Assembly: GCA_013289145.1 (NCBI GenBank)
Contig: JABDAM010000002.1
Coordinates: 7,653-71,652 of the forward strand
Direction: 5' to 3'
Length of the DNA: 64,000 bases
Origin: Alphaproteobacteria bacterium
GTDB taxonomy: Bacteria > Pseudomonadota > Alphaproteobacteria > UBA11073
This document shows positions 12,798-64,000 of this stretch, one piece after another. The notes under the pieces were generated by a model, which was not told the DNA's origin, searched no databases, and saw nothing but the letters and a program-made list of their open reading frames with translations. The position numbers and the translations under genes are program-made. How positions within the stretch are numbered: the first letter of the stretch is position 1; the number at the start of each line of letters is the position of its first letter.

Positions 12798-12800
12798 GGT

Positions 12801-16256: not shown

Positions 16257-16351
16257 ATGATTCTTTTAGCACGCGCATGACGTGCGGCAAAATAAAAAAG
16301 CTAAACATTCTTTCACTTGCTCTTGTTTCAATTCATCCCTAGGGTTTTCCG

Positions 16352-18753: not shown

Positions 18754-18804
18754 TTGCTTATCTCCGTGCGGCTAAAAACAAGCGCATAACCTACGGAGTT
18801 TCCC

Positions 18805-19509: not shown

Positions 19510-20708
19510 TTTTTCTGTAATACCGCCGCAAAAAACCCATCCGCGCCGCCAAATTCGGTTGGCAGAATGCGTTTTTGTTCGATCAGCCTGAAATCATCAT
19601 CGGATTTTAAAAACGCAGCTGTCTGATTTTCGCCTTCTTCGCGCTGTAAAGAACAAACGCAATAAAGTAACCACCCGCCGGGTTTTACCCATGTGGCCGC
19701 GCGGTCCAGCATCTGAGCTTGCAGCGCAGCAAGGCGTTTTACGTCATCCGCACTGCGGTGAATTAAAATTTCCGGATGGCGGCGGATGGTGCCGGTCGCG
19801 CTGCAAGGCGCATCGAGCAGCACGATATCAAACTCCCGCGCCGGCTCAAATTTCATCGCGTCCGCGCATTGCACGTCGGCAGTAAATTTCATGCGCGTGA
19901 GGTTTTCATTTAATCGTGTCAGACGCTGGGCCGAACTATCCACCGCCGTCACGCGCGCGCCGCTTGCCAGTAGTTGCATGGTCTTCCCGCCCGGCGCAGC
20001 ACAGAGATCAAGCACATCCAATCCTGCAATATCACCCAGCATTTGCACCGGCGCGGCGGCCGCAACGTCTTGCACCCACCAGGCACCTTCGGCGTAACCG
20101 GGCAGACTTGCCACGTCGGTCGATTTTTCCAGCCGTATTGTTTGCGGCACAATGATCTTGCCATCCAGTTTTTCCGCCCAGCCCGCAGTATCGCGCGGCG
20201 CTGTGATATCCAGCGGCGGTTCGGACAATAAAATTTCCAGCCATAGGTTGTGACCGTCAAAATTTTTCCAACTTTCGAGTAACCATGATGGAAAATTTTC
20301 ACTACGCGGGATTTTTTCGAACTGATGCCGCCCTTCGCGGTCGCAGCGGCGCAGCACGGCGTTTAATAAACCCTTCAAGCCCGCCATATTTTCGCGCACG
20401 GCGAGTTCCAGGGTTTCATTCACCGCTGCATGCGGCGGCGTTTTCAAAATCAGCAATTGCGCCGTGCCCAGCAACAGCATCGCCCAAATTTCCGGCGGCA
20501 CGTTATTGGGGTCTTTCAGCCAGGGCAAAATTAATTTTTTCAGCCGCCCGTAATCGCGCAGTACCGCCATGAGCAGCACGCGCACAAAGGCACGATCGCG
20601 CGCCGCCAGACTGGAGAGGCGCGATTCCTGCAGCGCTTCGTCAGTCATTTGGCCAGCCTCCAACACCTGGCGCAGCGCGCGATAAGCGATGTATCTTGTA
20701 GTGCTCAT
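19506..20708 (-). CDS. rsmB: 16S rRNA m5C methyltransferase RsmB/Sun family
   Basis: SAM site LDLCAAPGGKT, catalytic region LLDAPCSATGTIRRHPE, and YCVCS with the second catalytic Cys. Confidence 0.85.
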   Translation of the reverse strand: MSTTRYIAYRALRQVLEAGQMTDEALQESRLSSLAARDRAFVRVLLMAVLRDYGRLKKLILPWLKDPNNVPPEIWAMLLLGTAQLLILKTPPHAAVNETLELAVRENMAGLKGLLNAVLRRCDREGRHQFEKIPRSENFPSWLLESWKNFDGHNLWLEILLSEPPLDITAPRDTAGWAEKLDGKIIVPQTIRLEKSTDVASLPGYAEGAWWVQDVAAAAPVQMLGDIAGLDVLDLCAAPGGKTMQLLASGARVTAVDSSAQRLTRLNENLTRMKFTADVQCADAMKFEPAREFDIVLLDAPCSATGTIRRHPEILIHRSADDVKRLAALQAQMLDRAATWVKPGGWLLYCVCSLQREEGENQTAAFLKSDDDFRLIEQKRILPTEFGGADGFFAAVLQKN

Positions 20709-49347: not shown

Positions 49348-50838
49348 TCACGCAACCAAAGCCGGTTCGGGCGGCGCTTCGCCTTTAAGGGCGGCGACAT
49401 TGGACGGATTGTGATGACGCTGCATCTTCAGGCCGCCGGGCACGAGCAGCAGCGCGACGCCGGAAATCTGTTCGCGGTGATTGCGGTCCGCGCCGAATTG
49501 GAATCGCAGCGCGCCGGTTTCGCTGCCTTTAAATTCTTTCCACCATTCTTCAGGGAACTTTACCGCGCCCTTTTCCGGCGCGATGTTCAGCAGCATGATG
49601 ATTGATGTCGCCGGGGTCTTGCCGCCCGCAGGCGTATAGTCACACTGCATCGCCGTCAGGCCCTCATGCCCCGCGATGTGAACGCGCGAAAATTCCACGG
49701 TTACGCTGGGCGGCAATTGCGAACGGATGCGATGCATTTCCGCGATGGACGGCCCCAGCGTGAATGCGCTTTTCGTATGTTTGCGATCCAGCTTCAAAGC
49801 CTTGTAAAATTCCGCATTCACCTGTTCGCGGAACGGTCCCACGTGATCTTCCACGCACCATTGATAACCGCGCGGCAGCATCACGCTGTCGTTCGTAAAA
49901 CAAGCCACCGCGTAATCGCGTAAACAGATCGCGGCGATTTTCGCATCAGCCTCAGCGCCCGCCCCATATTGCTTTCGCAATTCCGCCGCGCGCGGCTTGA
50001 AATCATGGCTATCAACAAAACCCATCGCACCATCGCGCGCGGCTACATCCATGCGGCCTTTGCGGCTGTTTTTTAATGCCGGAATATCACGATTGTCCCA
50101 CGTGCGGCCGACGTCATCATAACAAATATCGTAAACCAAGCGCGCATCAGACTCGCGCAAAGTCTCCGACATCAATTCCGCATCCTGCCCCGATAAGCCC
50201 AACGTTTCCGCCAAAATCAGCGTATCAGGCGAGCGCACGAGCGCGTGGTTCAACGCCCGCTCCCAAACCAGTTGCGGCAGCCAGTATACCGCATCGCACC
50301 GGAAGCCGCTGAAACCGATATCCAGATATTCATCAATCAAACGCAGCCAGTAACCGCTCTCGCCCAGAAAATAATTCCAGGCTTCGGCATTGTTGTAATC
50401 AATCTGCGCGATATCCGTCCAGGGATCATCCGCCGGACCCGGCACATGCAATTTGCCATCCGCATCGTGGCGAAAAAAATTCGCATGCGCCGCGACCAAG
50501 GGATGATCGATTGCGACATGATTGAAAACCAGATCCGCCAGGACGCGCATTTTCTTCGCGCGCGCCATGCGCATGAAATCGCGCAATTGATAAAAAGCCT
50601 GAACCTGGCTCAAGCCGCCGCAAAATTCTTCATTGATCGTGAAATGATCGCGGATGGCGTATAAACTGCCGGATACCTGCGCGCCGTGATAATTCTTGCT
50701 CGCCGCCGTAACCGGATGAAACGGATTCAGGTGAATGGCATTGCAACCGAGTTTTTCGGCTTCCATCAGCGCGACCGTCCACTCCGGCAAGGTGCCGAGC
50801 GAGCGCGGATTGACGCTGTAAAGAATTAAGCCAGCCAT
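49348..50838 (-). CDS. GH13 alpha-amylase-family enzyme
   Basis: GH13 regions I-IV: LADLVFNHVAIDH, GFRCDAVYWL, ILAETLG, FVDSHD. I chose the start at MAGLILYSV (50838); the ORF-track start at 51078 runs into the tRNA gene. Confidence 0.8.
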   Translation of the reverse strand: MAGLILYSVNPRSLGTLPEWTVALMEAEKLGCNAIHLNPFHPVTAASKNYHGAQVSGSLYAIRDHFTINEEFCGGLSQVQAFYQLRDFMRMARAKKMRVLADLVFNHVAIDHPLVAAHANFFRHDADGKLHVPGPADDPWTDIAQIDYNNAEAWNYFLGESGYWLRLIDEYLDIGFSGFRCDAVYWLPQLVWERALNHALVRSPDTLILAETLGLSGQDAELMSETLRESDARLVYDICYDDVGRTWDNRDIPALKNSRKGRMDVAARDGAMGFVDSHDFKPRAAELRKQYGAGAEADAKIAAICLRDYAVACFTNDSVMLPRGYQWCVEDHVGPFREQVNAEFYKALKLDRKHTKSAFTLGPSIAEMHRIRSQLPPSVTVEFSRVHIAGHEGLTAMQCDYTPAGGKTPATSIIMLLNIAPEKGAVKFPEEWWKEFKGSETGALRFQFGADRNHREQISGVALLLVPGGLKMQRHHNPSNVAALKGEAPPEPALVA

Positions 50839-51042
50839 AAGATAAGCATCCCATAAATAGGTGTGTAATTTCAAGAGGCCTTGGCCATTCCCGCACCGGT
50901 TTCTAATAAAGATTGACCCAAGGAGGCCGGATAGGCTATGAAGCCCGGTCGGTGCGCCCTCGTGGTGGAATGTCCTCCGTGCGAAGCACGGCAAATATAA
51001 GGCTACCATTCCACCCGGGAGTTGTGTAAGGAAAATATCGAG

Positions 51043-51126
51043 GCCCTCGTGGTGGAATGGTAGACGCGGTAGACTCAAAATCTATTGCCGCAAGGCGTGG
51101 GGGTTCAAGTCCCTCCGGGGGCACCA
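51043..51126 (+). tRNA. tRNA-Leu (anticodon CAA)
   Basis: Acceptor GCCCTCG/CGGGGGC, 3-bp D stem, anticodon stem GTAGA/TCTAT with loop CTCAAAA, long variable arm TGCCGCAAGGCGTG, T arm GGGGG-TTCAAGT-CCCTC, discriminator A, and encoded CCA. Confidence 0.9.
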
Positions 51127-51231
51127 AATTGAAGTTTTAGGACATCCGGTAAAATCCGGGATACCCGCAGAAAACCAAAAGAAATAACCGTTTTCTCTTC
51201 CTACACCGTCCGACGAAATCCGTTGACAGCC

Positions 51232-51290
51232 TGGGGCACAATGGGGCACATTTCAGCCTATGTGCCCCACCCGTAGCAAAATGTGCCCCA
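51232..51290. promoter_or_regulatory. Cluster of four GGGGCACA(T) motifs (two direct, two inverted) upstream of the integrase: putative arm-type sites
   Basis: tGGGGCACAatGGGGCACAT ... ATGTGCCCCa ... ATGTGCCCCa read directly. The same motif recurs at 57949-57969 and 58154-58181. Confidence 0.45.
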
Positions 51291-51291
51291 C

Positions 51292-52512
51292 ATGGCAAAA
51301 ACTGCCTCTTTAACGCAAGTTAAGATAAAAGCCGCTAAACCCAAGGCCACGCCTTACAAGTTGTATGATGCAAACGGGCTGTATGTTCAGATTCATCCCA
51401 ATGGCAGCAAATACTGGCGCTGGCGGTATCGCTTTAATGATGCAGAAAAAAAGATGGCCTTGGGCGTTTTTCCCGAAGTCAGCCTGACCGAAGCCCGCGA
51501 CAGGCGCGATGATGCCCGTCGCCTGTTACGCAGCGGTGTTGACCCTATGGCACAGAAACAAGCCATTAAGCGGGAAGCCCTCATTAACGCCGAAAACAAT
51601 TTTGAAGCCCTTGCCCGCGAATGGCATGACAAATTCCGCCAACGCTGGACGCCCGACCACGCCAGCCGCATTTTAATTTCATTGGAAAAGGATGTCTTTC
51701 CCTACATTGGAAAGCGGCCTATCGCCGAAATTGACACCCCAGAAATTATTACCGTGCTTCGCAAAGTGGAAAGCCGCGATGCATTGGATGTGGCTAAACG
51801 CATCCGCCAACGTATTGCCGCCGTTTTCACCTATGCCAAACAGACTAGCCGCGTGCGCGATAACCCTGCCCGCGATTTGGGCGGCGTGTTGAAAACCCGC
51901 AAACAACAACACCGCCTTGCGATTAAGCAGGATGAATTGCCGGAATTTCTAAAAGCCGTTGAAAATTATCAGGGTGATATTGTCACACGGCTGGCATTGC
52001 AATTTATGGTTTTGACTTTCGTCCGTACCAAAGAACTGTTGGGCGCCCGGTGGGATGAAATTGATTGGAAAGCAAAAATCTGGCGCGTCCCAGCCGAACG
52101 CATGAAAGTGCGCGAACCTCATATTGTCCCGCTGTGCAAACAGGCCATCACCATTTTGGAAGAAATAAAATCCCTGACTGGTGACTATGATTATATTTTT
52201 GCTTCCCGCACAGGTAAAACCTTATCCACCGGCACAATGATTTACGCCGTGTACCGCATGGGATTCCATAGTCGCGCCACCGTGCATGGCTTGCGCGGCA
52301 CCGCCAGCACAATCCTGAATGAAAACGGCTTCAACCCTGATGTAATTGAACGCCAACTTGCCCACCGTCCTGGCAATGAAGTCCGCGCAGCATATAACAG
52401 TGCCGAATATCTGCCTGAACGCCATAAAATGATGGCTTGGTGGGGAGAATATCTGAGAAAAGTATCTAGTAAAATCGAACCAACAACTGGAAAACAACGC
52501 AAAGGGGGTTAA
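51292..52512 (+). CDS. int: Tyrosine integrase, P4/CP4-57 type (DUF4102 N-terminus)
   Basis: YKLYDANGLYVQIHPNGSKYWRWRYRF...KKMALGVFPEVSLTEARDRRDDARRLL, catalytic region HGLRGTAST...ERQLAH...AYN. It lies directly 3' of the tRNA-Leu gene. Confidence 0.9.
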   Translation: MAKTASLTQVKIKAAKPKATPYKLYDANGLYVQIHPNGSKYWRWRYRFNDAEKKMALGVFPEVSLTEARDRRDDARRLLRSGVDPMAQKQAIKREALINAENNFEALAREWHDKFRQRWTPDHASRILISLEKDVFPYIGKRPIAEIDTPEIITVLRKVESRDALDVAKRIRQRIAAVFTYAKQTSRVRDNPARDLGGVLKTRKQQHRLAIKQDELPEFLKAVENYQGDIVTRLALQFMVLTFVRTKELLGARWDEIDWKAKIWRVPAERMKVREPHIVPLCKQAITILEEIKSLTGDYDYIFASRTGKTLSTGTMIYAVYRMGFHSRATVHGLRGTASTILNENGFNPDVIERQLAHRPGNEVRAAYNSAEYLPERHKMMAWWGEYLRKVSSKIEPTTGKQRKGG

Positions 52513-52520
52513 GAGGCACC

Positions 52521-53159
52521 ATGGATTTAACAGACTTTGAACTAGACTCGATGGATTATTGGCGGCTTTGTGATGAAGTTTCAGTTATACAAGCTATTCT
52601 TCTGCTGCTGGGTCATGACCCTGCGGGAAAATATAAATGGGCTGATGGCGATAGCAACAAGCGTCCCATAGGATATGATGCAGTTTCAGCCGCATTAAAA
52701 AATGCAATAATGTCAAAAACGCTTCCGGCAATTGAAGTGCCTATTGCTTATGATGCACACAATGAATTTTTTAATCCGGGTCCGTCCGACTTAATCAATT
52801 GGCATGAAACTAGGGTAAATATAATAGACTTAAAGACGTGGCTCTCTAATAGAGGAGTTAAATCAGGCTTTTTCTTTCCTGACAGTAAAAATATTCCAGA
52901 TTATCTGGACCCTAATAATCCATATTACGCTCCCAAATTAGCTGCTGCTGTAAAGGCGTGGCAAGCCGTTACCATAGATGAAGATAAATTGAAGGGGAAA
53001 ACACCCAAACAGGCAATGGATAAATGGCTTCGTGAAAATGGTAGTCATTACGGACTAACAAAAGACGAAGATGGTAGTCCTAACGAGCAAGGCATTGAAG
53101 ATGTATCCAAAATCGCAAATTGGAATACTAAGGGTGGCGCGCCTAAAACCCCTGGGTGA
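52521..53159 (+). CDS. Hypothetical island protein
   Basis: 212-aa AT-rich ORF 8 nt after int. The C-terminal KTPKQAMDKWLRENGSHYGLTKDEDGSPNEQGIEDVSKIANWNTKGGAPKTPG looks like a segment I associate with integrase-adjacent genes, but I cannot name a family. Confidence 0.5.
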   Translation: MDLTDFELDSMDYWRLCDEVSVIQAILLLLGHDPAGKYKWADGDSNKRPIGYDAVSAALKNAIMSKTLPAIEVPIAYDAHNEFFNPGPSDLINWHETRVNIIDLKTWLSNRGVKSGFFFPDSKNIPDYLDPNNPYYAPKLAAAVKAWQAVTIDEDKLKGKTPKQAMDKWLRENGSHYGLTKDEDGSPNEQGIEDVSKIANWNTKGGAPKTPG

Positions 53160-53364
53160 GTTATGCCAACCCGCCCACCTATTAAAAATAACTGAATTAT
53201 CAGTGTTTTTTTATGAACTATGCTGCGTTATCTGTTCAGGTCCTAAAAAAACCATAGGTAAGGTTACCAAATTTTAGGGATAAGTTTTCGTAACTTACCC
53301 ATCAATCTTCGCAAAAAAAATCGTGTCCTAATCCTTCCAGCATAACTCTGGAAAGGACGAAGAC

Positions 53365-53568
53365 ATGCAAAGCAATCCGAATACAAAAATCTTGCGCTTA
53401 CGGGAGGTTTTATCTCGCACCGGATTAAGTCGCAGCACAATTTATGAAATAGTCGGCAAGGGTACATTCCCCAAACCTATTAATCTTGCGCCGCGGGCGG
53501 TGGGATGGCTGGAATCTGAAATTGACACCTGGATTGCTGAACGCATTGCGGCCAGCCGCAGCAAATAG
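53365..53568 (+). CDS. alpA: AlpA family transcriptional regulator / excisionase-like HTH
   Basis: ILRLREVLSRTGLSRSTIYEIVGKGTFPKPINLAPRAVGWLESEIDTWI is the AlpA (prophage CP4-57 regulatory) signature. Confidence 0.8.
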   Translation: MQSNPNTKILRLREVLSRTGLSRSTIYEIVGKGTFPKPINLAPRAVGWLESEIDTWIAERIAASRSK

Positions 53569-53580
53569 ACACTTAGCACT

Positions 53581-54060
53581 ATGGGTCAGAAATTCCCCAA
53601 TCCGCGTTTGTTTAAGGTGAATTGGAATTACACCGTGGCGGATGCCGTCCGTTGCGCGAAAGTTCACGAAAACACCATCCGTAATTGGATAAAATGGGGA
53701 TTAAAGCCAATTGATAATAATCGCCCTATGCTGATTACAGGTGCCGAATTTATCAGGTTCTTAACGCAACAACGCGCCGCCAGAAAACGACCCTGCCAGC
53801 CGCACGAACTTTATTGCCTCCGCTGCCGCAAGCCGCAACGCCCGGCGGGCGATATGGCCGATTATTTGTACACCGCCCCAAATCGCGGTTGCCTGACAGC
53901 TATTTGTCCCGGCTGTGACGGGATGCTGAACAAACGAATGTCACCGTCTGACCTGCCCGCTGTTAAAGCTATTTTGAACATTTCTGAGCAACGTCATGAA
54001 CCACACATAGATGACCGTTCAACCCCTAGTCTGAATTGTAACTTCGAAAGGAAAAGATAA
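53581..54060 (+). CDS. HTH (excisionase/MerR-like) + Cys4 zinc-ribbon protein
   Basis: YTVADAVRCAKVHENTIRNWIKWGL is HTH-like. CLRC...CPGC gives four cysteines. The stop overlaps the next start (TAATG). Confidence 0.5.
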   Translation: MGQKFPNPRLFKVNWNYTVADAVRCAKVHENTIRNWIKWGLKPIDNNRPMLITGAEFIRFLTQQRAARKRPCQPHELYCLRCRKPQRPAGDMADYLYTAPNRGCLTAICPGCDGMLNKRMSPSDLPAVKAILNISEQRHEPHIDDRSTPSLNCNFERKR

Positions 54061-55097
54061 TGGCTCCGAAATACAACCCGCAGAACGAGCGCATTAAGCG
54101 CGAATATATGGAACATTTACGCCACGCCAAACGGCTAAGTGACCCCACCATTGATGGTGTTCTGAAATCCATACGGCGGTTTGAAGAATATACGGGGTTT
54201 AAGGATTTCAAACAATTTACTCGGCATCAGGCCATGAACTTTGTCCGTGACCTGCCCGAAACGCCCAATGCACGAGGCAATGGCGTTTTAAGTCGCCCCA
54301 CCGTCTATACAACCCTCATACAGTTGCGGACATTTTTTATCTGGCTGGCAGGAAAGCCAGGATATAAATCGCGTTTTGTATATTCGGATGCCGATTATTT
54401 TAACCTGACAGAAAAACAGGCGCGTATGGCAAAGGCTCCGCGTATGCAGCGCCAGCCGACGATGGAGCAGATTACCGCCGTGGTGCAATCTATCACGCCC
54501 GCCACCGATTTTGACCGCCGTGACCAGGCACTAATTGCTTTTGCGATTTTGACAGGTGCGCGGGATGGCGCACTGGCATCCATAAAACTGCGGCATGTGG
54601 ATTTGGAGCAAAGGCTGCTTTACCAAGATGCACGCGACGTCAAAACCAAGAATAGCAAAACCATCCCGACGTTCTTTTTCCCCATCGGCGGAGTTTTTGA
54701 ACAGATTGTCGTGGATTATATAGCATACCTGAAAAAAGATCGGTTGTGGGGTATGGATGACCCGTTATTCCCGGCCACCAAAATGGCAGTCGGTGAAAGC
54801 GGTGGGTTTGCAGCAGCAGGTTTTGACCGTCGGCATTGGACAACGGCCAGCCCCATTCGGGATATTTTCAAGAAACGCTTTGCTGGGGCGGGATTGCCTT
54901 ATTACAAGCCGCATACTTTCCGGCGTACGCTGGTGTTGTTAGGTGAAAAAATCTGCAAATCACCGGAAGAGTTTAAGGCATGGTCGCAAAACATCGGTCA
55001 CGACCATGTTTCCACGACCTTTAACAGTTACGGGAATATCGGCATGAACCGACAGGGAGAAATTATGCAGCAGCTTGGAAGTAATATCAGGATATAA
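54060..55097 (+). CDS. Tyrosine recombinase / site-specific integrase (second one on the island)
   Basis: Catalytic residues are in the expected order: TGARDGAL (R), HTFRRTL (HxxR), GHDHVSTTFNSYG (H...Y). Confidence 0.8.
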   Translation: MAPKYNPQNERIKREYMEHLRHAKRLSDPTIDGVLKSIRRFEEYTGFKDFKQFTRHQAMNFVRDLPETPNARGNGVLSRPTVYTTLIQLRTFFIWLAGKPGYKSRFVYSDADYFNLTEKQARMAKAPRMQRQPTMEQITAVVQSITPATDFDRRDQALIAFAILTGARDGALASIKLRHVDLEQRLLYQDARDVKTKNSKTIPTFFFPIGGVFEQIVVDYIAYLKKDRLWGMDDPLFPATKMAVGESGGFAAAGFDRRHWTTASPIRDIFKKRFAGAGLPYYKPHTFRRTLVLLGEKICKSPEEFKAWSQNIGHDHVSTTFNSYGNIGMNRQGEIMQQLGSNIRI

Positions 55098-55110
55098 ATC
55101 TAAGTTTAGA

Positions 55111-55140
55111 AAAATCAGGTGATTTGCACCACCTGATTTT
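55111..55140. terminator. Bidirectional hairpin terminator between convergent genes
   Basis: aaaATCAGGTGatttgcacCACCTGATttt: an 8-bp perfect stem with flanking A/T runs. Confidence 0.55.
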
Positions 55141-55165
55141 ATCACCCAATTTTAATGATGAATGA

Positions 55166-55369
55166 TTAATGTTTAAACCATTCGCTGTTATTAATGTGAA
55201 AGGCAGCTCTTACCAATTCAAATCTTGGATGATTTCCACAATGATTACATGGGGGAAAACGTTTTCCCTTAATCACGGTAACCTCATGCTCTTGTGTGTG
55301 ACGCCTATCATGAATAACTTTGTAAATACCTGACCTTGGTACCTCATCTCCTGGTTTATATTGAGCCAT
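55166..55369 (-). CDS. Small hypothetical protein (67 aa) with CxxC
   Basis: Start MAQYKPGDEVPRSGIYKV is preceded by AAGGAGAAGCT. The sequence contains PPCNHCG. The longer ORF-track start lacks an RBS. Confidence 0.5.
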   Translation of the reverse strand: MAQYKPGDEVPRSGIYKVIHDRRHTQEHEVTVIKGKRFPPCNHCGNHPRFELVRAAFHINNSEWFKH

Positions 55370-55691
55370 AGCTTCTCCTTTCCCGGAATCCGGGTTGTTA
55401 AGAAAGTAATTGGCTTGACTGGGAAGGCACACATTCGATAGAATATGAGTCTGAACTGGATACGCAGCCAATTACGATGATGCGTGTCTAAAGGAACGCT
55501 CCCCTGGCCTGCAAAGTTTTGGGGGGCTTTTCTTTATCAGCAGATAAAATAACATACCTTGTTATGCTTATGCAATAAAAAACGTTTCGAATCAGTGGGT
55601 TAGTGATTCGTTAAGTGTTTAAATAATCCCCTTCCCTCTTTCTAATTTCCAAGTAGACTACGCATGTCATTCACCCATTTGGGCGAGTGAT

Positions 55692-55898
55692 GGGGCGTAG
55701 TAACCCCTTGTCATAGCGGTTGGCACAACCGCATTGGTGCCGTTCCTAAACAGACTGGCATCAGAGTGCCGCTTCTCAGCTTTGGCTGGGGAGCGGTGGT
55801 GTATGTCCAGCCCGCAAGGGTAAAGGCCATCGCGCCGTTTTCTATGACAACGGTTACTAATCCCCAGTCGCCAGAGTGGACACTTTGGCGGCTTTTTT
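55692..55898 (+). promoter_or_regulatory. Candidate structured 5' leader / cis-regulatory RNA ending in an intrinsic terminator
   Basis: 55692-55716 (ggggcgtagtaaccccttgtcatag) pairs with 55842-55865 (ctatgacaacggttactaatcccc), enclosing GC-rich local hairpins that include a GCAA-capped stem. It ends with the stem cgccagag/ctttggcg plus gcttttttc at 55869-55898, 25 nt before the OMP start. Confidence 0.3.
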
Positions 55899-55922
55899 CT
55901 TATCAACCTTGGGGGAAAACCG

Positions 55923-56564
55923 ATGAATAAAATTTACTCACTGGCGTTTGTAGCCGCCTTGTTGGCTGTCACCACTGCCACAGCACACGCAGACGATTGG
56001 ACAACCAATCTGCGTCCTTATGTGGGCGCTGATTATCAATTCACTCACCTGAAATACAATAATGATTATGGGGTTGGTGGCGGCTTGGCACTAGACGGCA
56101 ATACGATTTTAGAACGTGGCCTGAACGGCGGCAATGTTCACGTAGGCGTGCGCCCGGCGCAGTATTGGGGCGCAGAGTTGGGTTATTTTGACACTACGAA
56201 TGAAAGCAAAAATATCGCCGCTGGGACGACGGTTGGACCCGGCACGGTTGCCTTGGTGCCACTGACAGGCAAAGTGCAAATGCATGGCGCAACGCTGGAT
56301 GCGATGGGCTACCTGCCTGTGATTGCCAACCGGGTTGATTTAATCGCCACCACCGGGCTTGCATGGGACCATATTAAAGCGGGCTTTGGTGGCCTCGGCA
56401 GCGTCAGCAAAAGTGAGATTGATTGGCGGATTGGTGGCGGCGCGCAGGTGAATTTATTACCCAATTTGAATCTGCGCGGTCTGGTGCGTTACCAAACGGC
56501 GGATTTCAAAAACATCGCCGATAGCGCGTGGGTTTACACCGCCGGGCTAAATTACAGTTTTTAA
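55923..56564 (+). CDS. Outer-membrane beta-barrel protein (OMP_b-brl / Omp25-like)
   Basis: Signal peptide MNKIYSLAFVAALLAVTTATAHA, alternating-hydrophobicity strands, and the C-terminal signature GLNYSF. Confidence 0.75.
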   Translation: MNKIYSLAFVAALLAVTTATAHADDWTTNLRPYVGADYQFTHLKYNNDYGVGGGLALDGNTILERGLNGGNVHVGVRPAQYWGAELGYFDTTNESKNIAAGTTVGPGTVALVPLTGKVQMHGATLDAMGYLPVIANRVDLIATTGLAWDHIKAGFGGLGSVSKSEIDWRIGGGAQVNLLPNLNLRGLVRYQTADFKNIADSAWVYTAGLNYSF

Positions 56565-56573
56565 TTTTCTTCA

Positions 56574-56606
56574 CCGCCGCCAGTCAAAAGCTGGCGGCTT
56601 TTCTTT
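56574..56606 (+). terminator. Rho-independent terminator after the OMP gene
   Basis: CCGCCAGtcaaaagCTGGCGG followed by cttttcttt. Confidence 0.6.
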
Positions 56607-56630
56607 CCCATCAAACCAAGAAGCAAAACC

Positions 56631-57017
56631 ATGCGCATTATCTCTATTATCGGCCTCGTAGCCCTTGGCGGCTGCATTACCGCCTGTTCCAGCATTATTG
56701 AGGGACGTACTCAGCAGATTGTCATTAATACCAATCCGCCCGGCGCAAGCTGCCAGTTAGTCCGCAATGGCGCGACTATCGCCACCGTTATTGATACTCC
56801 CAGCGGCGTGAATGTGGACAAAACAAAATACGATATTGAGATTAGATGCAACAAACGCGGCTATCAACAAGCTACTTACCTAAACCATTCCGGTACGGCG
56901 GGTGCGACGGTTGGCAACATTATTCTTGGTGGCGGCATCGGTTGGGCAATCGACTCTGCTTCTGGCGCCGACAATAAATACGACAGTCCAGTGAATATCA
57001 CGCTGGCTAAAAAGTAA
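56631..57017 (+). CDS. Lipoprotein with PEGA-like domain
   Basis: Lipobox LGGC in MRIISIIGLVALGGCITAC. INTNPPGASCQLVRNG resembles a PEGA domain, and the C-terminus is Gly-rich. Confidence 0.6.
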   Translation: MRIISIIGLVALGGCITACSSIIEGRTQQIVINTNPPGASCQLVRNGATIATVIDTPSGVNVDKTKYDIEIRCNKRGYQQATYLNHSGTAGATVGNIILGGGIGWAIDSASGADNKYDSPVNITLAKK

Positions 57018-57038
57018 ACAAGTTTTGAAAAAGGGATG

Positions 57039-57605
57039 CTACCGGATATTTATACCTGAAACAATTTCATTGCCGATAGAATCAAACGCCTTTGAAAGAG
57101 TTGTTTGAAGGTCTCGGCAGAAAAGAACCAGCGAGATATGATGCACTGTTTCGAGAAAAATATCTGGCGCGCTCGTAAAGGGACACGAAAAATCCATAAC
57201 CTTATATAATTCTATTAATGATGTAAGTTTCTGGCAATCTGTTTCTATTAACTTATGCGTGAAATCTATATTATGGAGGGAGTGAGCAAAAACATTGCGG
57301 ATGTCCTTTATAAGAAGAAGGTCTCTATAAACTGCGCCCTCAATAAGCGACATTGCATAAGCAATTCTGATTTTTGCAGAGAATGTGGCTAAAACTGCAT
57401 TGCCGCCGTCAAATATATTTTTGCTATCATCCTTATTTAGGTCACGGAAATGTGTACGCAAAAGTTGTTCGAGGCCATATTCTAGATATGAGGCACCCAT
57501 TATGGTGACGGTTCTGGCATCTTTTCCTTTAAGGTCATAAATAATCGCTGTCATTTCCTCCGATGTAGGAAAATTTTTAAGAAGCGTTTTTGATGAAGTA
57601 GTCAT
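57039..57605 (-). CDS. Hypothetical protein, MtlR/MltR-like helical domain
   Basis: IMGASYLEYGLEQLL...FDGGNAVLATFSAKIRIAYAMSLIEGAVYRDLLLIKDIRNVFAHS resembles the mannitol-repressor-like family (IRNxFAH). Tentative. Confidence 0.5.
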   Translation of the reverse strand: MTTSSKTLLKNFPTSEEMTAIIYDLKGKDARTVTIMGASYLEYGLEQLLRTHFRDLNKDDSKNIFDGGNAVLATFSAKIRIAYAMSLIEGAVYRDLLLIKDIRNVFAHSLHNIDFTHKLIETDCQKLTSLIELYKVMDFSCPFTSAPDIFLETVHHISLVLFCRDLQTTLSKAFDSIGNEIVSGINIR

Positions 57606-57613
57606 TGGTTTTT

Positions 57614-57814
57614 TTACATATTTCCTGGCTTACTATCGACTAATTTAAAATCGAAGTAATCTATACAGCCGTCCCACGAACGAGCCTCTTTCCCGCATTT
57701 CTCACAATTAAAACTGCCTTTATCTCTGGCAGGGAAATTCATATAGGTACATTCATATTTCTCCCCACAATGAGGACATTCAAATTCGGTTTTTCCTTTT
57801 TCCCAGGTAGCCAT
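57614..57814 (-). CDS. Small zinc-ribbon protein
   Basis: CPHCGEKY...CEKCGKE are two CxxC pairs. It ends 8 nt upstream of the MtlR-like gene. The start is either 57814 (MATWEKG) or 57847. Confidence 0.45.
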   Translation of the reverse strand: MATWEKGKTEFECPHCGEKYECTYMNFPARDKGSFNCEKCGKEARSWDGCIDYFDFKLVDSKPGNM

Positions 57815-57948
57815 CCTATCAATATGGCATAGAGCAATTATTGGCACCAGTATCTCCTAATTTAAACATACTTTTCAATATGATTAGAATGAGATAGATT
57901 CATATTTCGGTGCGCGTCTGGCCTCAAATTCACTTTGCCAAACTTGGT

Positions 57949-57969
57949 GGGGCACATTTGGGGGCACAT
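57949..57969. promoter_or_regulatory. Two direct GGGGCACAT motifs at the right end of island 1
   Basis: gGGGGCACATttgGGGGCACATt read directly, about 55 nt before the degenerate tRNA 3' remnant. Confidence 0.45.
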
Positions 57970-58024
57970 TAGAAATCTATATTATAAAAAGTCAAGGAAA
58001 TGCTATGTTTCCGGCTTTAATATA

Positions 58025-58043
58025 GGTTCCTCCGGGCCAAATT
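58025..58043 (+). repeat. Degenerate copy of the tRNA-Leu 3' end (attR of island 1 / attL of island 2)
   Basis: ggttcctccgggccaaatt versus tRNA ggttcaagtccctccgggggcaccaaatt. Similarity then continues through 58230 with the sequence downstream of the intact tRNA (ttttaggacatcc..., ccgtccgac.aaatcc.ttga.agcctg). Confidence 0.65.
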
Positions 58044-58183
58044 AAGGTTTTAGGACATCCCGTGAAGTCCGGAATACCCGCCGCAAACGGATAAGAACCA
58101 GCATTTTCTTTTCCGATACCGTCCGACAAAATCCATTGATAGCCTGAAGCACAATGGGGCACATCTTGGACCATGTGCCCCGC

Positions 58184-58230
58184 CTGACAAAAACCACCTA
58201 TTTAACGCAAGTTAAAATAACAGCGGCTAA
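58184..58230 (+). pseudogene. 5' remnant of a second P4-type integrase (start codon mutated, truncated after about 15 codons)
   Basis: ctgacaaaaaccacctatttaacgcaagttaaaataacagcggctaa parallels int1 atggcaaaaactgcctctttaacgcaagttaagataaaagccgctaaa (LTKTTYLTQVKITAAK versus MAKTASLTQVKIKAAK). Similarity stops at 58230. Confidence 0.6.
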
Positions 58231-58296
58231 GGTATTTTGGATGCCCACAGCGGCGATATAATCTGCCTCATATTCGTTGAATATCGGGAGCGCAAA

Positions 58297-60933
58297 ATGA
58301 TACTTAAAACGATTACGCCTGAATTAATTACGGCTTATTGGTTTTGCCCGCGCAAGGCTTTTTTGTTAATGCGCGGCGAAAAAGGCGCGGCCAGGCATGA
58401 ATATGTGGAAGTGATGGAGCGGCAGGCCTTGGCAAACCGTAAAAAAAATTTGGAAATTTCTAAAACTGGCGCGCCGGGAATCTGCGAACTTTTTTTGGCA
58501 ACCAGTACCCACAACATCGGCAAAGATCAAAAAATCCAATTGGCGGCGATGGCATATCTGCTGACGAAATCATCGGGCAAAACGATTACATCCGGCACAA
58601 TCATGAATGCGGCCGGCACGTTTTTTCAGGTTAAATTAACGGCCTTGATCGCGGAAATCGCGCCGCTGGTTGAAACGCTGGAAAGCTGGGTGAAAAAACC
58701 GCCACTCGAAGCGCCAGGAATTATTCTGATACGGCATTGCCAGATTTGCCCTTTCCGTCAGGCTTGTTTCGACCAGGCAAAAATCGAAGATAATCTCAGC
58801 CTGCTCGACCGCGTCACGCCCAAGGTGATGAAAAAATATAAAAAGCAAGGCATCTTTACCGTTCGCCAGTTATCTTATCTTTACCGCCCGCGGCGCGAGC
58901 GCAAAAGAAGCAAACCGGCGCCGGTGAAATTTGACGTGACGTTACAGGCTTTGGCGTTGCGGGAGCAGAAAATCTATGTGCAGGAAACGCCCATTATTCC
59001 GGCGCATCCGGTTGAAATCTTCATTGATTTCGAAGGCTTGCCCGATCAGGAATATGATTATCTCATCGGCATGATGGTTTCTGAAAACGGGCGCGCGGAA
59101 TGTCATTCTTTCTGGGCGGATACGGCGCAGGATGAAAAAACCATGTTTGAAAATTTCTTACATGCCGCCGCAAAATATCCTGATGCGCCCATTTATCATT
59201 ACGGACATTATGAATTCAAAAGCCTCATTCGAATTGGGAAGAAATATAACCTGGATATTGAAACGGTCAAAAAGCGGTTGATGAACGTCAGCTTTTTTGT
59301 ATTCGGCAAGATTTACTTCCCGGCGCGTTCCAACAACCTGAAAGATATCGGTAACATCATCAGCGCTGTGTGGACAGAACCAGGGGCTTCGGGACTGCAT
59401 AGCATTGCCTGGCGGATGCAGTGGGACGTATCGCAAAATGTCCGGTTCAAACAAAAATTGCTGACTTATAATGCGGAGGATTGCGCTGCGCTGCGTATTT
59501 TGCTCGTCGAACTGCGCAGCATCAGCGCGGCCGCTGAAACCCGCGCGGACGTGGATTTTGCGGGGCGCATCAAGCCAACCGCCAGTCCGGCGGGTCAGGC
59601 TATTCATCATTCACTGGAGCAAATTCTGCGTTCCGCCCATGCGGAATATCACAAAAACCGCATCGGCATCCGGCAGCGGGACAAGGATGACAAACCCGTT
59701 CATATCGGCGGCACGTTTGGCCACACAGGTGTGCGGCGGATCATTCCCAAACCGGACAGAGTTGTTCATGTCAAACCCATAACCCGCTGCCCCAAGCATC
59801 CAAATGAAATTCTGCAACCGGATGAAGATTGCAGTCATACCGTGATCGATCTGGAAATGATGCCGCATGGTTTTCAAAAAGTGATTACAAAATATACCGG
59901 CAAATCCGGCTATTGCGGCCGGTGTTACCGCCGTTACTTGCCACCGCGGATTAAGCAACTGTCCAACCAGCTGTTCGGCCACAACATGCGCGCCTGGGTG
60001 GTGTTTCAGCGGGTTGTCCTGCGCCTGTCCTACAGCGCGATATCGCAGGTTTGCGAAGAATTGTTCCGCGAACCTGTCACCGACGGCACCATTGGAAATT
60101 TCATGAAAGATTTCGGCAATCATTATGCCAAAACCGAAGAGATTTTGTTTCAGAAAATCTTCGCCAGCCCTTTTATGCATGTCGATGAAACCCGCATCAG
60201 CGTTCAGGGCGCGGATCATTATGTCTGGGTTTTCACCAATGGCACGCACGTCGTTTTTCGTCTGACAGAAACGCGCGAATCCGGCGTCATCCAAGAATTA
60301 CTGAAAAATTATAAAGGTATTTTGATTTCCGATTTTTACGGCGGCTATGATGCCTTTGCCTGCCGCCAGCAAAAGTGCCTGGTGCACCTTATCCGCGATT
60401 TGAACGATGAATTATGGAAAAACCCGCATCATCCGGCGCTTGAGGCTTTTGTGGGCGCGGTGAAAGAATTGTTGACGCCCTTGATGCAGGATGTACAAAC
60501 CCACGGCTTGCGCCGCCGCCATTTGCGCCGGCATGAAAAACGCGTGGCGGCATTCTATCAAAACACCATTGATAACCAAACCTATAAAGACGAAACGCTC
60601 GGGCGCTATCAAAAGCGCTTTTCGCGTTACCGCGACAGCCTGTTCCGCTTTTTGCAGGAAGATCATATCCCCTGGAACAATAACATGGCTGAGCGCGCCA
60701 TTCGCCATCTGGCGATCCAGCGCAAGATTTCGGGGAGTTTTTATAAAGGCCCCATGATTTCCTATCTGCGTCTGCTCGGCATCGCGCAGTCGTGCCGGTT
60801 TCAGAAAAAGTCATTTCTGGGCTTTATGCTTTCCGGCAAAAAAGACGTAGATGAATTCCATCCACCCCGGCGGCAGCCCATTTCCGAACCGGCTGGCGGC
60901 GGCGTTAATGCCGTTACTGCCCAGCAGGGGTAA
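58297..60933 (+). CDS. Fusion protein: Cas4/RecB-like (TM0106-type) nuclease + RNase H-like domain + IS66-type zinc-ribbon/DDE transposase
   Basis: N-terminal part: WFCPRK...HCQICPFRQAC (C...CX2CX5C), IDFEGLPDQEYDYLIG, YHYGHYE, YNAEDCAAL. C-terminal part: RCPKHP...CGRCYRRY, HVDETRISV, ISDFYGGYDAF, WNNNMAERAIRH. It is one uninterrupted frame, with gggagcgcaaaATG at 58297. Confidence 0.75.
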   Translation: MILKTITPELITAYWFCPRKAFLLMRGEKGAARHEYVEVMERQALANRKKNLEISKTGAPGICELFLATSTHNIGKDQKIQLAAMAYLLTKSSGKTITSGTIMNAAGTFFQVKLTALIAEIAPLVETLESWVKKPPLEAPGIILIRHCQICPFRQACFDQAKIEDNLSLLDRVTPKVMKKYKKQGIFTVRQLSYLYRPRRERKRSKPAPVKFDVTLQALALREQKIYVQETPIIPAHPVEIFIDFEGLPDQEYDYLIGMMVSENGRAECHSFWADTAQDEKTMFENFLHAAAKYPDAPIYHYGHYEFKSLIRIGKKYNLDIETVKKRLMNVSFFVFGKIYFPARSNNLKDIGNIISAVWTEPGASGLHSIAWRMQWDVSQNVRFKQKLLTYNAEDCAALRILLVELRSISAAAETRADVDFAGRIKPTASPAGQAIHHSLEQILRSAHAEYHKNRIGIRQRDKDDKPVHIGGTFGHTGVRRIIPKPDRVVHVKPITRCPKHPNEILQPDEDCSHTVIDLEMMPHGFQKVITKYTGKSGYCGRCYRRYLPPRIKQLSNQLFGHNMRAWVVFQRVVLRLSYSAISQVCEELFREPVTDGTIGNFMKDFGNHYAKTEEILFQKIFASPFMHVDETRISVQGADHYVWVFTNGTHVVFRLTETRESGVIQELLKNYKGILISDFYGGYDAFACRQQKCLVHLIRDLNDELWKNPHHPALEAFVGAVKELLTPLMQDVQTHGLRRRHLRRHEKRVAAFYQNTIDNQTYKDETLGRYQKRFSRYRDSLFRFLQEDHIPWNNNMAERAIRHLAIQRKISGSFYKGPMISYLRLLGIAQSCRFQKKSFLGFMLSGKKDVDEFHPPRRQPISEPAGGGVNAVTAQQG

Positions 60934-61132
60934 AAAAGCGGCTTAAAGCGGCGTAAAAATCACCCGCGGCGCACGCCAAACCGGCTTAATAGCCGTCAAA
61001 AACAATTTTAAATTGTATTGCAGTTCTGAAACCACGCGCGGCGGTGGGTATTTGCGCGTTTTATTTTAACCCAGCTGGGCAGTTACTGGTTTTTGTTTCT
61101 GCAAGTATTTGCGAATCTCTTACGCTTAAAGA

Positions 61133-62593
61133 ATGGACTTAAAAATATTTTTTATTTTATGCGCGAATACAACGGAACTTTGCCGTCAGCTGGAGGAGTC
61201 GCAAGCGATTATCCACTCGCAGCAAGTAAAACTCGTGCATCAGGATATGGTAATCCAGGATCTGGCCGAACAGATCAAAAAACTGAAACGCAGCCAGGAA
61301 TTAACCAGCGCGATCAGCAGCAAACCGCCTTCCAGCGACGGTTTGAAAAAACCCGTCCGCGTCATGAGCCTGCGCCGCACCGAACACAATGCCAACGGCG
61401 GCCAAACGGGCCACAGGGGCGAAACCCTGCGCCAGGTTGAAACACCGGATATCATCCAGCAACATTGCGCCGAACAATGCGCCCATTGTCAGGCCAAACT
61501 GACCGAGGCCATGGTGACCAGCCATGAAGCGCGCCAGGTTTTTGATATTCCCAAACCCCGATTGGAAGTCACGGAACATCAGGCGATGATTTACGCCTGC
61601 GCATCCTGCCGCCGCGTGACCAAGGGTGTTTTCCCCATGGACGTGACCGCGCCCGCGCAATATGGCCCGCGGGTGCGGGCGGCGGCGGTTTATTTGAACG
61701 CTGGACAATTAATTCCGGAAGACCGCGTGGCGGAAACCATGCGCGATCTCATGAACATCAACCTGTGCCCCGCAACCATTGCCGCGATGGGTACGCGCAA
61801 AGCAGATGAATTCCGGCCGCTTGCCGATTATATCGCAGCGCGGGTTGCGGCGGCGCCCGTCCGGCATCTTGACGAAACGGGTTTCCGGATCGGCGGCAAA
61901 ACGCAATGGCTGCATGTGGCGGCGACTGCGGATCTGACGGCTTACCGTATTTCCATGCATCGCGGAACGTTGCCGCAGAATATTAAAAGCGGCGTAGTCG
62001 TACACGATCATTGGAAACCTTATTATACCATGGAAGGCGTAACGCATGCCTTATGCAATGCCCATCACCTGCGCGAACTCAAAGCCCTGATCGAGATCGA
62101 AAAAGAATCCTGGGCACGGCATATGGAGCGGTTATTGCTCTATGCCCACCGTGTCGTCCGCCTGGCGCAAGAGAAAAACCAGATTACACTACCCGATCCG
62201 ATTTACCGGCGTATCTCGCGAATCTATGACCGGATTGTTGAATACGGCCTGACCTTCCATGAACGGCAAGAAGCGTTATTCCAAAAGGGAAGCCGCGGGA
62301 AAAAGCCGCGCCGGATCGGGCATAACCTGTTACTGCGTTTCCGTGACTATAAAGCTGACGTTCTGCGCTTTGCGGCGGATTTCAATATTCCCTTTACGAA
62401 TAATCAGGCTGAGCGTGATATCCGGATGATGAAGGTGAAGCAAAAAATCTCCGGCGGTTTCCGCTGCCGCGCGGGCGCGCAGAGTTTTATCACCCTTAAA
62501 TCCGTGATGGCCACGGCGCGGAAACAATCCTGGAATATGCTTGAAACCCTAAGCCAGTCGCTTTTGGAACTGATGCCACGCCTTGCGAGCTGA
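61133..62593 (+). mobile_element. IS66-family transposase gene (single-ORF, ISBst12-like subgroup); element ends not resolved
   Basis: Coiled-coil N-terminus, SSKPPSSDGLKKP, zinc ribbon CAHC...CASC, and DDE core HLDETGFRIGG / VHDHWKPY / TNNQAERDIRMMK. No tnpA/tnpB-like ORFs lie upstream. Confidence 0.85.
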
Positions 62594-62687
62594 TTTTAAT
62601 GAGTTGAATTTGAGTAGGATCAATATACGCGCCTGGGTGTTGCTACAATTGAATATTTCATGATTATACACCCTACCATATTATCTT

Positions 62688-62718
62688 CCGGCTGGGATTT
62701 TAAAAGCTTCCCAGCCGG
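62688..62718. terminator. Perfect 10-bp hairpin downstream of the minus-strand orphan gene
   Basis: CCGGCTGGGAttttaaaagctTCCCAGCCGG. It lacks a clear U-tract on either strand, so terminator function is uncertain. Confidence 0.35.
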
Positions 62719-62727
62719 GTTTCCAAA

Positions 62728-63162
62728 TTACATGCCCGGAGTATGAACACCTGTTTGATTCAATTCAGACGGCAAAACAAATTTTGCCTCGCCCTTCCAT
62801 AAATTAACGGCTTTAATATTGCCGAATTCAATTTGTTTGTCTTTGGAAAAGCCAGCAACATTTAAGCGCACATGATCGATCATGCCGACCTCTGCAATGG
62901 ACAGGACATGAGTGCCAAGTATGGCATAGGTATCAAATCCTCCCACATAGGCTGAATTTATTTTTTCTATTGCGGCTTCCAAGCTTTCCAAACCCTGTTT
63001 GAAAGACATGCCCAACGCATAGTTGCGCGAACCATCATCCGTTTCCTGGATGGAAATCTTAAAAATCATGGGAACATAAGTACGGTTTGATTGGTTATAA
63101 GCGACTGCGGCGAAATGCCGCGGCGCTGCCAAAAGTTCTTGCAATTCTCCGGGTTTTACCAT
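62728..63162 (-). CDS. Hypothetical protein (island 2 cargo)
   Basis: AT-rich ORF. I chose the start at MVKPGELQELL; the longer ORF-track N-terminus looks non-coding. No motif recognised. Confidence 0.4.
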   Translation of the reverse strand: MVKPGELQELLAAPRHFAAVAYNQSNRTYVPMIFKISIQETDDGSRNYALGMSFKQGLESLEAAIEKINSAYVGGFDTYAILGTHVLSIAEVGMIDHVRLNVAGFSKDKQIEFGNIKAVNLWKGEAKFVLPSELNQTGVHTPGM

Positions 63163-63486
63163 TGTGCCCGTCTGGTCCAGGCAGGGGGGCATGATTAAAA
63201 GAAATAGGGTGGTAACGGCCGGATGAGGTATCGTAAGCGATAAGAGCAAACATTTTAAGTTTCCCTATTTGGTGTGGGATTGAAAATGGTGTCATATTAA
63301 TAGCCTTGCGAACTGGATTGCAAGGAAAATGAATACTTGCAAGACGGGCGCTTGGCGAAATCCCCCTTTTCGGGTCCGGGGAAGGGGAATTTTTTCATGC
63401 AAGTATTTTTTTTCTTTACTTTCAGAAATATTTTCTTTTATGCTGAATGCCTATAATCAAACCAACACTTAAGACAGGGATACAAT

Positions 63487-63807
63487 ATGTTAACGCAGGC
63501 AAAACGTAAAATTTTCAAGACGAATGGCAACGAGTTCCACCTTAGATTAGTTGAGGTGAAGTCAGGCAGTGAATTGGACAAGATTCGTCAGGAATTGATT
63601 GAAAAGGGTGCAGACTTTGAAAAAGAAGATTTTCTGCATTTAGCAAATCGGAGCTTTCCTAGTTTAGTTACTAAAAGTGGTAGCCATTATGGACTTGTCG
63701 AGAATATTTCAAAAGCTCTTGAGATTTTAGATGATGTGAAACAGCCCATGACGAAAGACGATTGGCTCTATAAGTTTAATCTTGATAATAAGATTATTCT
63801 ACATTAG
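63487..63807 (+). CDS. Hypothetical 106-aa protein (island 2 cargo)
   Basis: AT-rich ORF with agggatacaatATG upstream. No motif recognised. Confidence 0.4.
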   Translation: MLTQAKRKIFKTNGNEFHLRLVEVKSGSELDKIRQELIEKGADFEKEDFLHLANRSFPSLVTKSGSHYGLVENISKALEILDDVKQPMTKDDWLYKFNLDNKIILH

Positions 63808-63884
63808 AAAGAACCTTAGAACTTAACCCGAAGGCGCTTGAGCACATTTTCAAGCCCAGCCGTTGGGTCGGGCATACCGATGAA

Positions 63885-64000
63885 ATGAAAGAAGTATGGG
63901 CGCATGTGCCGAAGAACCATAAAAATGGATTTGATTTTGATGATGCTTATGAAGAGGCCCAGATAGAGACAATCTTGCCGGCGGCAAAGAAAGAGATTTT
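63885..64000 (+). CDS. Possible partial ORF running off the right edge
   Basis: The frame is open from 63792 to the window end (..MKEVWAHVPKNHKNGFDFDDAYEEAQIETILPAAKKEI). The first ATG is at 63885, with no convincing RBS. Confidence 0.2.
   Translation, partial: MKEVWAHVPKNHKNGFDFDDAYEEAQIETILPAAKKEI

Follow-up and report, generated by a model that had tools for sequence, protein, structure and literature searches.

At its 3' end, the tRNA-Leu(CAA) gene of an uncultured soil alphaproteobacterium very probably carries two related integrative islands arranged in tandem. Both begin in a 64,000-nucleotide (nt) stretch of DNA, here referred to as the window, that corresponds to positions 7653 to 71652 of contig C2 of a metagenome-assembled genome (MAG; 1.42 Mb in 60 contigs, ~70% complete); contig C2 extends 20 kb beyond the window end, and that part was read as locus L009. 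Island 1, which directly follows the tRNA gene and looks complete, runs from 51127 to approximately 58040 (6.9 kb), and island 2, distal to it, retains only the first codons of its integrase gene. Repeats, arm-type sites, protein domains and breakpoints can be read in the DNA itself, and the same stacked layout is found in a relative.

Evidence for two related islands at one tRNA gene

ARAGORN detected a single tRNA gene in the window, the intact tRNA-Leu(CAA) at 51043 to 51126, which is the sole CAA tRNA-Leu in the assembly. As described in the initial annotation of this DNA, it is followed by the open reading frame (ORF) of a P4-type integrase (51292 to 52512), in which three Pfam domains were recognized. 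A second, diverged copy of the tRNA 3' end and of the adjoining island sequence had also been described, and this claim proved well founded: the segment from 51109 to 51338 (tRNA 3' end, arm region and first integrase codons) is repeated at 58026 to 58230, with blastn E values of 1e-34 to 7e-33 within the genome and no further such copy in the assembly. When the two segments were aligned with MAFFT (264 columns), the mean column identity was 82%, and similarity was significant well past the short motifs, with ungapped blocks of 148 nt (51124 to 51271 versus 58037 to 58184; 79% identity) and 58 nt (51281 to 51338 versus 58173 to 58230; 84% identity). The likeness ends at 58231.

The end of the second copy is a remnant of an integrase gene (16 codons, 58184 to 58231). 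It begins with CTG where the intact gene has ATG, and the 15 codons after the CTG read LTKTTYLTQVKITAAK, versus MAKTASLTQVKIKAAK in the intact integrase; with 12 of 16 residues equal to those of the intact protein, the earlier reading of these codons as the start of an integrase whose ATG has become CTG is confirmed. By tblastn, no further piece of the island 2 integrase was found, either downstream or anywhere in the assembly. The region is also AT-richer than the core, as had been noted, with a G+C content of 0.46 in island 1 and 0.49 in island 2 versus 0.545 in both flanks.

At the junction between the islands, the end of the island 1 arm is followed by a core copy (CCTCCGGG), a 4-nt gap (GGCA is absent) and CCAAATT. 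The right arm of island 1, with two arm-type sites, is thereby linked to a copy of the tRNA core and, through it, to the integrase-side arm of island 2. The displaced tRNA fragment (CCTCCGGG/CCA, 58028 to 58040) lies on the same strand as the tRNA.

For the octamer GGGGCACA, nine copies were counted in the window versus 2.0 expected, and eight of the nine fall into three clusters (51233 to 51289, 57949 to 57968 and 58156 to 58181). In the integrase-side arm of island 1, the last of these sites ends 3 nt before the ATG of the integrase gene, and the corresponding arm of island 2 has kept two of four sites, one direct and one inverted. On both arms, clusters of this density would not be expected by chance, and we regard the octamers as putative integrase sites; more specifically, they are probably arm-type sites, in the layout to be expected around an attP for an arm-binding integrase, with two direct sites placed 60 to 90 nt ahead of the core. 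The layout of island 1 recurs at a tRNA-Glu island on contig C4 of the same genome, with the variant motif GGGGGCA, and in the relative G002.

The initial annotation had the array begin at the tRNA and end at 58230. The first of these borders stands; the second had to be moved outward, since a further copy of the attachment (att) site was found past the window end, 15 to 35 nt upstream of the core gene dsbB. This third copy reads ccggctttaatattagatccctccgggcca, its counterpart at the junction (58011 to 58039) reads ccggctttaatataggttcctccgggcca, and both carry the same 4-nt gap (GGCA). We take it as the presumable far att site of island 2, which, if closed by this copy, would be ~9.6 kb long.

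The same island family in a relative

A scan of genome contigs with the integrase returned only G002, a complete genome from the same family as the host, and one distant fragment; outside the host genome, the comparison of att sites covered G002. In G002, tRNA-Leu(CAA) is followed by an 83%-identical integrase and the same four-gene module as in island 1, and two further att copies, both with arm sites in front of them, were located 7 and 16.4 kb downstream; the third att copy is preceded by a near-identical pair of direct arm sites. Positions 8152 to 20150 of loci L022/L023 (contig C1 443500 to 483499) concern the second unit, which has the potassium-uptake operon kdpABCDE in full but lacks an integrase, and the third, which starts with a second kdpA and a truncated kdpB. 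Judged from these sequences, stacking is a habit of this island family, seen again in G002 at the same tRNA. As a side observation, a housekeeping-type operon (kdp) is here carried by an integrase-less island unit.

The presence of kdpA at the start of both the second and the third unit means that segmental duplication was involved in G002, and the second copy in our window could likewise have arisen by a segmental duplication, local to the attL region, or by homologous recombination between paralogous islands, for which the host genome offers substrates (at least five islands with related integrases, three of them sharing a 1.36-kb module). However, the copy starts exactly at the tRNA core and is preceded by a far arm with arm-type sites, and the combination of far arm and core recurs at the dsbB border; as a random duplication would ignore such borders, we regard this origin as highly unlikely.

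Proposed order of events

Serial integration of two related islands, as originally proposed, agrees with the architecture of the junction, with the third core copy at dsbB and with the stacked family in G002. In the following scenario, we infer in which order the events took place, where the crossover lies and whether island 1 is still mobile. A P4/CP4-57-type integrase would bind arm-type sites (GGGGCACA) on both arms and recombine around the boundary between T stem and acceptor stem in the tRNA gene, with the incoming island supplying a new tRNA 3' end and the former 3' end being displaced to the far side. Island 2 would have arrived first, directly after the tRNA, with the short att copy before dsbB as its far end; island 1 would then have entered the regenerated tRNA gene, which would have created the junction at 58011 to 58045 and pushed island 2 outward. 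Subsequently, an IS66-type element might have inserted after codon 16 of the island 2 integrase gene, and a deletion might then have removed the rest of that gene, leaving island 2 as an integrase-less remnant of the kind known as cis-mobilizable elements (CIMEs). By the usual accretion model, the distal island 2 is probably the older one. Accretion of an incoming element beside a decayed one is the standard model (PMC5704250), and tandem arrays at tRNA genes (tDNAs) are a recorded class (PMC4383910).

The review that describes accretion also allows for tandem structures to be acquired in one step, and transfer of tandems has been observed (PMC5704250); in that case, a stacked composite would have been excised in a donor via its outer att sites and integrated as a unit. 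Both displaced copies share the 4-nt gap and ~20 nt of arm sequence, as expected with a common history. One-step acquisition, however, accounts for nothing beyond what serial integration explains, and the integrase-side arms differ by ~20%, which indicates that any joint transfer was separated by a long time, in one direction or the other, from the divergence of the units. We consider it improbable.

Assembly support and points against the array

For the source run, we used Logan contigs, which come from an independent assembler and drop rare variants. The locus was present in one public soil-metagenome run, and an exact look-up of the island 1 integrase in other assemblies found it in the source sample only. 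One Logan contig covers 50500 to 55817 in one piece; another, of 4260 nt, covers 56738 to 58500, with its remaining ~2.5 kb lying past 58500 (to ~61000 by arithmetic), and therefore spans both the junction and the insertion sequence (IS) border. At the cargo module in between, the public run showed raised depth and variant contigs.

Several observations weigh against the array as we describe it. First, the left part of island 1 is connected to the right part only through a 1.36-kb module that is present in three copies in the genome, and the contigs of the run break there (55817 to 56738), so that the join across the 55.7- to 57.0-kb module rests on the MAG assembly. Second, the third att copy is just 30 nt long, with 90% identity and a genome-wide E value of 0.35 to 0.4, and no arm-type sites were found within 150 nt in the far arm of island 2 before dsbB. 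Third, the Logan contigs contained no excised circle, empty site or joint that skips island 1 (rare forms would not be visible in contigs), and no relative was found that has a demonstrably empty site with the same flanks. Finally, the flanks are swapped relative to those in related genomes, which means that the locus has also been rearranged.

The first of these points raises the possibility that the tandem layout is an assembly chimera, in which islands of different loci or strains were joined across the repeated cargo module, where variant contigs are indeed present. Yet GGGGCACA occurs on both sides of the module, which supports the join, whereas the tRNA-Glu island uses GGGGGCA; the junction bears the core of tRNA-Leu; depth is alike on the two sides (92 versus 80); and a single contig of the independent assembly runs across both the junction and the IS border. 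A chimera is, in our view, extremely unlikely. As for the third att copy, approximately five matches of its score were found in 2.8 Mb (both strands), and its weight comes from its position and strand: by our own estimate, the chance of such a match in that 330-nt spacer, on the right strand, is ~6e-4.

Rearrangement of the locus

In G002 (contig C1 443500 to 445000), COQ7 and dsbB lie on the minus strand, followed by the tRNA on the plus strand and then the islands. In the host, an amylase-like gene faces away from the 5' end of the tRNA, and dsbB comes after the last att copy. In G001, which belongs to the same genus as the host, a sequence identical to the final 24 nt of the tRNA was found 52 nt upstream of the amylase-like gene, on the same strand (contig C82, which ends there, inside the core); in G003, no integrase follows tRNA-Leu(CAA). 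An orthologue of the amylase-like gene was not found in G002 or G003. From a comparison of window positions 49348 to 51126 and contig C2 75334 to 76500 (L009 5335 to 6499) with two relatives (G001 and G002), the block consisting of the tRNA, the islands and the last att copy appears to have been inverted in place between its flanks, with breakpoints that would lie no more than ~200 nt from the 5' end of the tRNA and no more than ~25 nt from the last att copy. No convincing match to an original tRNA 3'-end remnant, which would be the scar of such an inversion, was found beside the amylase-like gene.

Between the amylase-like gene and the tRNA, a spacer of 204 nt (50839 to 51042) was observed to hold copies of the tRNA 5' end: a direct copy of 17 nt (50956 to 50972), an exact inverted copy of 13 nt (51003 to 51015) and a degenerate inverted copy at ~50884 to 50899 (11 of 16 bases by eye). 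The direct and the exact inverted copies form a hairpin with a CCGTGC-GAA-GCACGG stem (-31.7 kcal/mol; z score, -2.5), for which Rfam gave no match. These copies may be scars of rearrangement.

A constant breakpoint in the displaced tRNA ends

The tRNA gene itself ends in TCCCTCCGGGGGCACCA, and both displaced copies read CCTCCGGG-CCA, each without GGCA. In G002, both further att copies read GTCCCTCCG(G/T)GCACCA, without GG, and the displaced copy at the tRNA-Glu island of the host genome agrees with its tRNA as far as TAGGG but not beyond. Identity thus reaches tRNA position 69, three bases short of the discriminator, and ends there in all five copies (two here, two in G002 and one at tRNA-Glu). 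In contrast, the tRNA-Gln island of the host genome has a perfect 20-bp repeat. The observation of such 'damage' is credited to Williams 2003 (J Bacteriol 185:1059; as cited in PMC4383910). In Islander, 'damaged' displaced fragments with a small deletion 3 bp before the discriminator were reported for 148 of 3919 islands, and many crossovers were placed at the junction of T stem and acceptor stem (PMC4383910). Given the common breakpoint of the five copies and the 'damaged' class in Islander, the gap is a recurrent trait of such islands and not the product of random decay. The initial description of a 'decayed' tRNA end needs refinement in this respect, as the same break, 3 bp before the discriminator, is present in all displaced copies of this array and of that in G002.

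Since both displaced copies lack GGCA, tRNA-Leu(CAA) would now rely on the 3'-end copy supplied by island 1, and if island 1 or the entire array were excised at the core, the tRNA gene so rebuilt would presumably have a 4-nt gap. It is conceivable, if rather doubtful, that the gap is systematically made or selected by this integrase family and acts as a ratchet, with arrays growing only from the tRNA side. If true, this would mean that excision yields a broken tRNA gene and that the tRNA of the host depends on the newest island. A crossover to the right of CCA, with the gapped core in the island arm, was set aside: only CCA is common to the three sites there, and the placement of the damage beside the T-stem/acceptor-stem crossover in Islander also disfavors it. 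The constant breakpoint may aid the study of why islands damage displaced fragments.

The IS66-type block and the loss of the island 2 integrase

The integrase remnant of island 2 stops exactly at the start of an IS66-like terminal sequence (58232). Its best inverted partner, TCCAAATTAC, matches GTATTTTGGA at 9 of 10 bases (14 of 22 when extended) and lies 129 nt past the stop codon of a single-ORF IS66 transposase gene; the ends of the block are defined solely by this inverted match within the window. Because the remnant stops at an IS66-like end and the remainder is absent from the assembly, the gene would have been hit by IS66-type DNA, after which its body would have been deleted. The initial claim that IS66-type DNA had destroyed the integrase can thus be retained, with a deletion needed in addition to the insertion.

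Both transposase genes of the block contain DDE_Tnp_IS66 (Pfam E values of 1.5e-37 and 9.7e-41) and score above the cutoff of NCBIfam transpos_IS66 (195 and 274 bits versus 180), and the terminal sequences start with GTA, all of which resembles the single-ORF (ISBst12-like) type of IS66 elements. The block differs from that type in that it lacks tnpA and tnpB and in that one of its genes is fused to a module of a TM0106/RecB-like nuclease and an RNase H-like exonuclease. It differs further in its weak inverted ends, which lack the combination of terminal inverted repeats and 8-bp target duplication by which the IS66 family is recognized; around the block, CGGCTAAG and ATGCCCGG flank the ends without forming a target duplication. 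Such weak ends and the missing target duplication would point to deletion or rearrangement after insertion.

The fusion architecture is shared by more than 2000 homologues of 900 to 950 amino acids (aa) from bacteria and archaea, many of them on contigs of 3 to 4 kb, and in an annotation table for Solibacter usitatus, a RecB-nuclease COG is given for IS66 transposases (PMC3469429). No terminal motif was shared, upstream or downstream, by the flanks of fusion-gene homologues with ~50% identity. Between the two genes lies a repeat of ~170 to 190 bp, which was also found alone on contig C4 (65698 to 65865; 88 to 94% identity) and, by its sequence, resembles a miniature inverted-repeat element. 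The final codons and the stop codon of the fusion gene lie in the first arm of this repeat.

Gene content of the islands and related islands in the genome

The integrase of island 1 matches NCBIfam PRK09692 (308 bits), and its translation shows the motifs R, K, HxxR, H and Y. Downstream of it, the 212-aa protein gave no match in Pfam, NCBIfam or PHROG, and the AlpA-family protein (53365 to 53568) is likely, by homology, an excision factor or regulator. In the second recombination module, the motifs RxxxK...HxxR...Y are readable in the 345-aa tyrosine recombinase; homologues of this module are present in G002 (48% identity) and on contig C4 of the same genome (40%), with a patchy distribution (5 of 31 genomes searched).

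Four more P4-type integrases (44 to 50% identical), each adjoining a tRNA gene, were found in the genome of ~2 Mb (Table 1). A 1.36-kb module, consisting of a structured leader, an outer-membrane (OM) beta-barrel gene and a 128-aa gene, is present on three tRNA islands: those at tRNA-Leu (window 55661 to 57018), tRNA-Glu (C4 76761 to 78121) and tRNA-Met (C32 10349 to 11708). With blastn identities of 86% to the copy on C4 and 80% to that on C32, this shared module suggests that cargo may be exchanged among islands. At least five tRNA genes of this genome bear related islands, and small elements of this kind would therefore be a main route of gene gain in the lineage.

Beyond the IS66-type block, the cargo of island 2 comprises ORFs for proteins of 173 aa (minus strand) and 106 aa (plus strand) and for a 1174-aa repeat protein, none of which belongs to a known family. 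The gene for the 1174-aa protein (L009 1140 to 5062, from window position 63487 to past the window end) is followed by a 320-nt AT-rich spacer and then by the core genes dsbB and COQ7; the protein was not found in 30 relatives. It holds approximately five internal copies of a ~95-aa unit, which also makes up the separate 106-aa gene just upstream (37 to 42% identity), and its C-terminal half has a weak match to beta-keto-acid-cleavage enzymes.

Table 1. Features of the tRNA-Leu(CAA) locus and related islands of the same genome (window positions unless a contig is given)
Feature	Position	Strand	Evidence or remark
tRNA-Leu(CAA), intact	51043..51126	+	ARAGORN; Rfam tRNA, 52.7 bits; 3' part from ~51110 = attL core
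Island 1 arm on the integrase side, with four GGGGCACA sites (two direct, two inverted)	51233..51289	.	Motif scan
Integrase of island 1, 406 aa, P4/CP4-57 type	51292..52512	+	Pfam Arm-DNA-bind_3, Phage_int_M, Phage_integrase
212-aa protein, no family match	52521..53159	+	Adjoins the integrase gene also in G002 (tblastn, 53% identity)
AlpA-family small DNA-binding protein	53365..53568	+	Pfam Phage_AlpA, E 1.7e-21
Second recombination module: 159-aa HTH_17 protein and abutting 345-aa tyrosine recombinase	53581..55097	+	Pfam
Cargo module: OM beta-barrel protein (55923-56564) and 128-aa protein (56631-57017)	55661..57018	+	Pfam OMP_b-brl
Two cargo genes: 188 aa (weakly MtlR-like) and 77-aa zinc ribbon	57039..57847	-	Weak Pfam matches, below cutoffs
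Far arm of island 1: two direct GGGGCACA sites	57949..57968	+	Motif scan; 60-80 nt ahead of the junction core
Junction between the islands (island 1 attR, island 2 attL remnant)	58011..58045	+	Sequence, alignment, blastn-short
Integrase-side arm of island 2 and integrase remnant	58046..58231	+	Alignment, repeats, motif scan; 21-nt deletion in the arm
IS66-type block, bracketed by GTATTTTGGA (58232) and TCCAAATTAC (62722-62731)	58232..62731	+	Pfam, NCBIfam, inverted ends
Fusion gene, 878 codons: TM0106/RecB-like nuclease, RNase H-like exonuclease domain and IS66 transposase	58297..60933	+	Pfam, NCBIfam (both families above cutoff)
Repeat of ~170-190 bp with 23-nt inverted ends, GTTACTGCCCAGC...GCTGGGCAGTTAC	60905..61093		Between the two IS66 genes
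Single-ORF IS66 transposase	61133..62593	+	Pfam, NCBIfam
Cargo of island 2	62732..64000, on to contig C2 ~75330	.	ORFs and Pfam on L009
Third att copy	Contig C2 75334..75363 = L009 5335..5364 (would be window 67682..67711)	Same as other att copies	blastn-short
P4-type integrase at tRNA-Gln	Contig C4 50699..52132		Perfect 20-bp repeat 11.4 kb away
P4-type integrase island at tRNA-Glu	Contig C4 68856..82014		Module order as in island 1; 'damaged' displaced fragment
P4-type integrase at tRNA-Asp	Contig C9 41194..42614		
P4-type integrase at tRNA-Met	Contig C32 5066..6474		

Comparison with known systems

Island 1 seems to display the features by which Islander recognizes an island, namely, a tDNA with a displaced fragment, a tyrosine integrase inside and arm-type sites on both arms. 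It resembles the tRNA islands with P4/CP4-57-type integrases collected there (PMC4383910) in having an intact tDNA at one border and, at the opposite border, a displaced 3' fragment that shares the orientation of the tDNA, an integrase gene next to the tDNA, an AlpA-type partner, a crossover region between T stem and acceptor stem and a 'damaged' fragment. It differs from them in being very small (6.9 kb), without phage or conjugation genes, in bearing a second tyrosine-recombinase module and in its host, a soil lineage that is uncultured and whose small genome contains at least five such islands.

The strict rule of Islander for tandems asks for an integrase in each unit, and unit 2 keeps only 16 codons of one; lacking an integrase of its own, this outer unit is therefore better called a remnant (CIME-like). 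With CIMEs and tandem accretion (Pavlovic 2004 and Bellanger 2011, as cited in PMC5704250), the locus shares an intact element beside an integrase-less relative that has kept att-like borders, as well as three att copies in one orientation (51110 to 51133, 58011 to 58045 and C2 75334 to 75363); in contrast to those systems, no conjugation partner is known for this array, the mobility of which is putative. The array is a clear but ordinary example of a well-described class, the tRNA island with a decayed unit, and it leaves current understanding unchanged. Its value lies in a cleanly dissected case of island stacking at a tRNA gene from an uncultured soil lineage with a small genome, in which the sequence reveals three att copies, the two arms together with their sites, a decayed unit and the event by which this unit lost its integrase.

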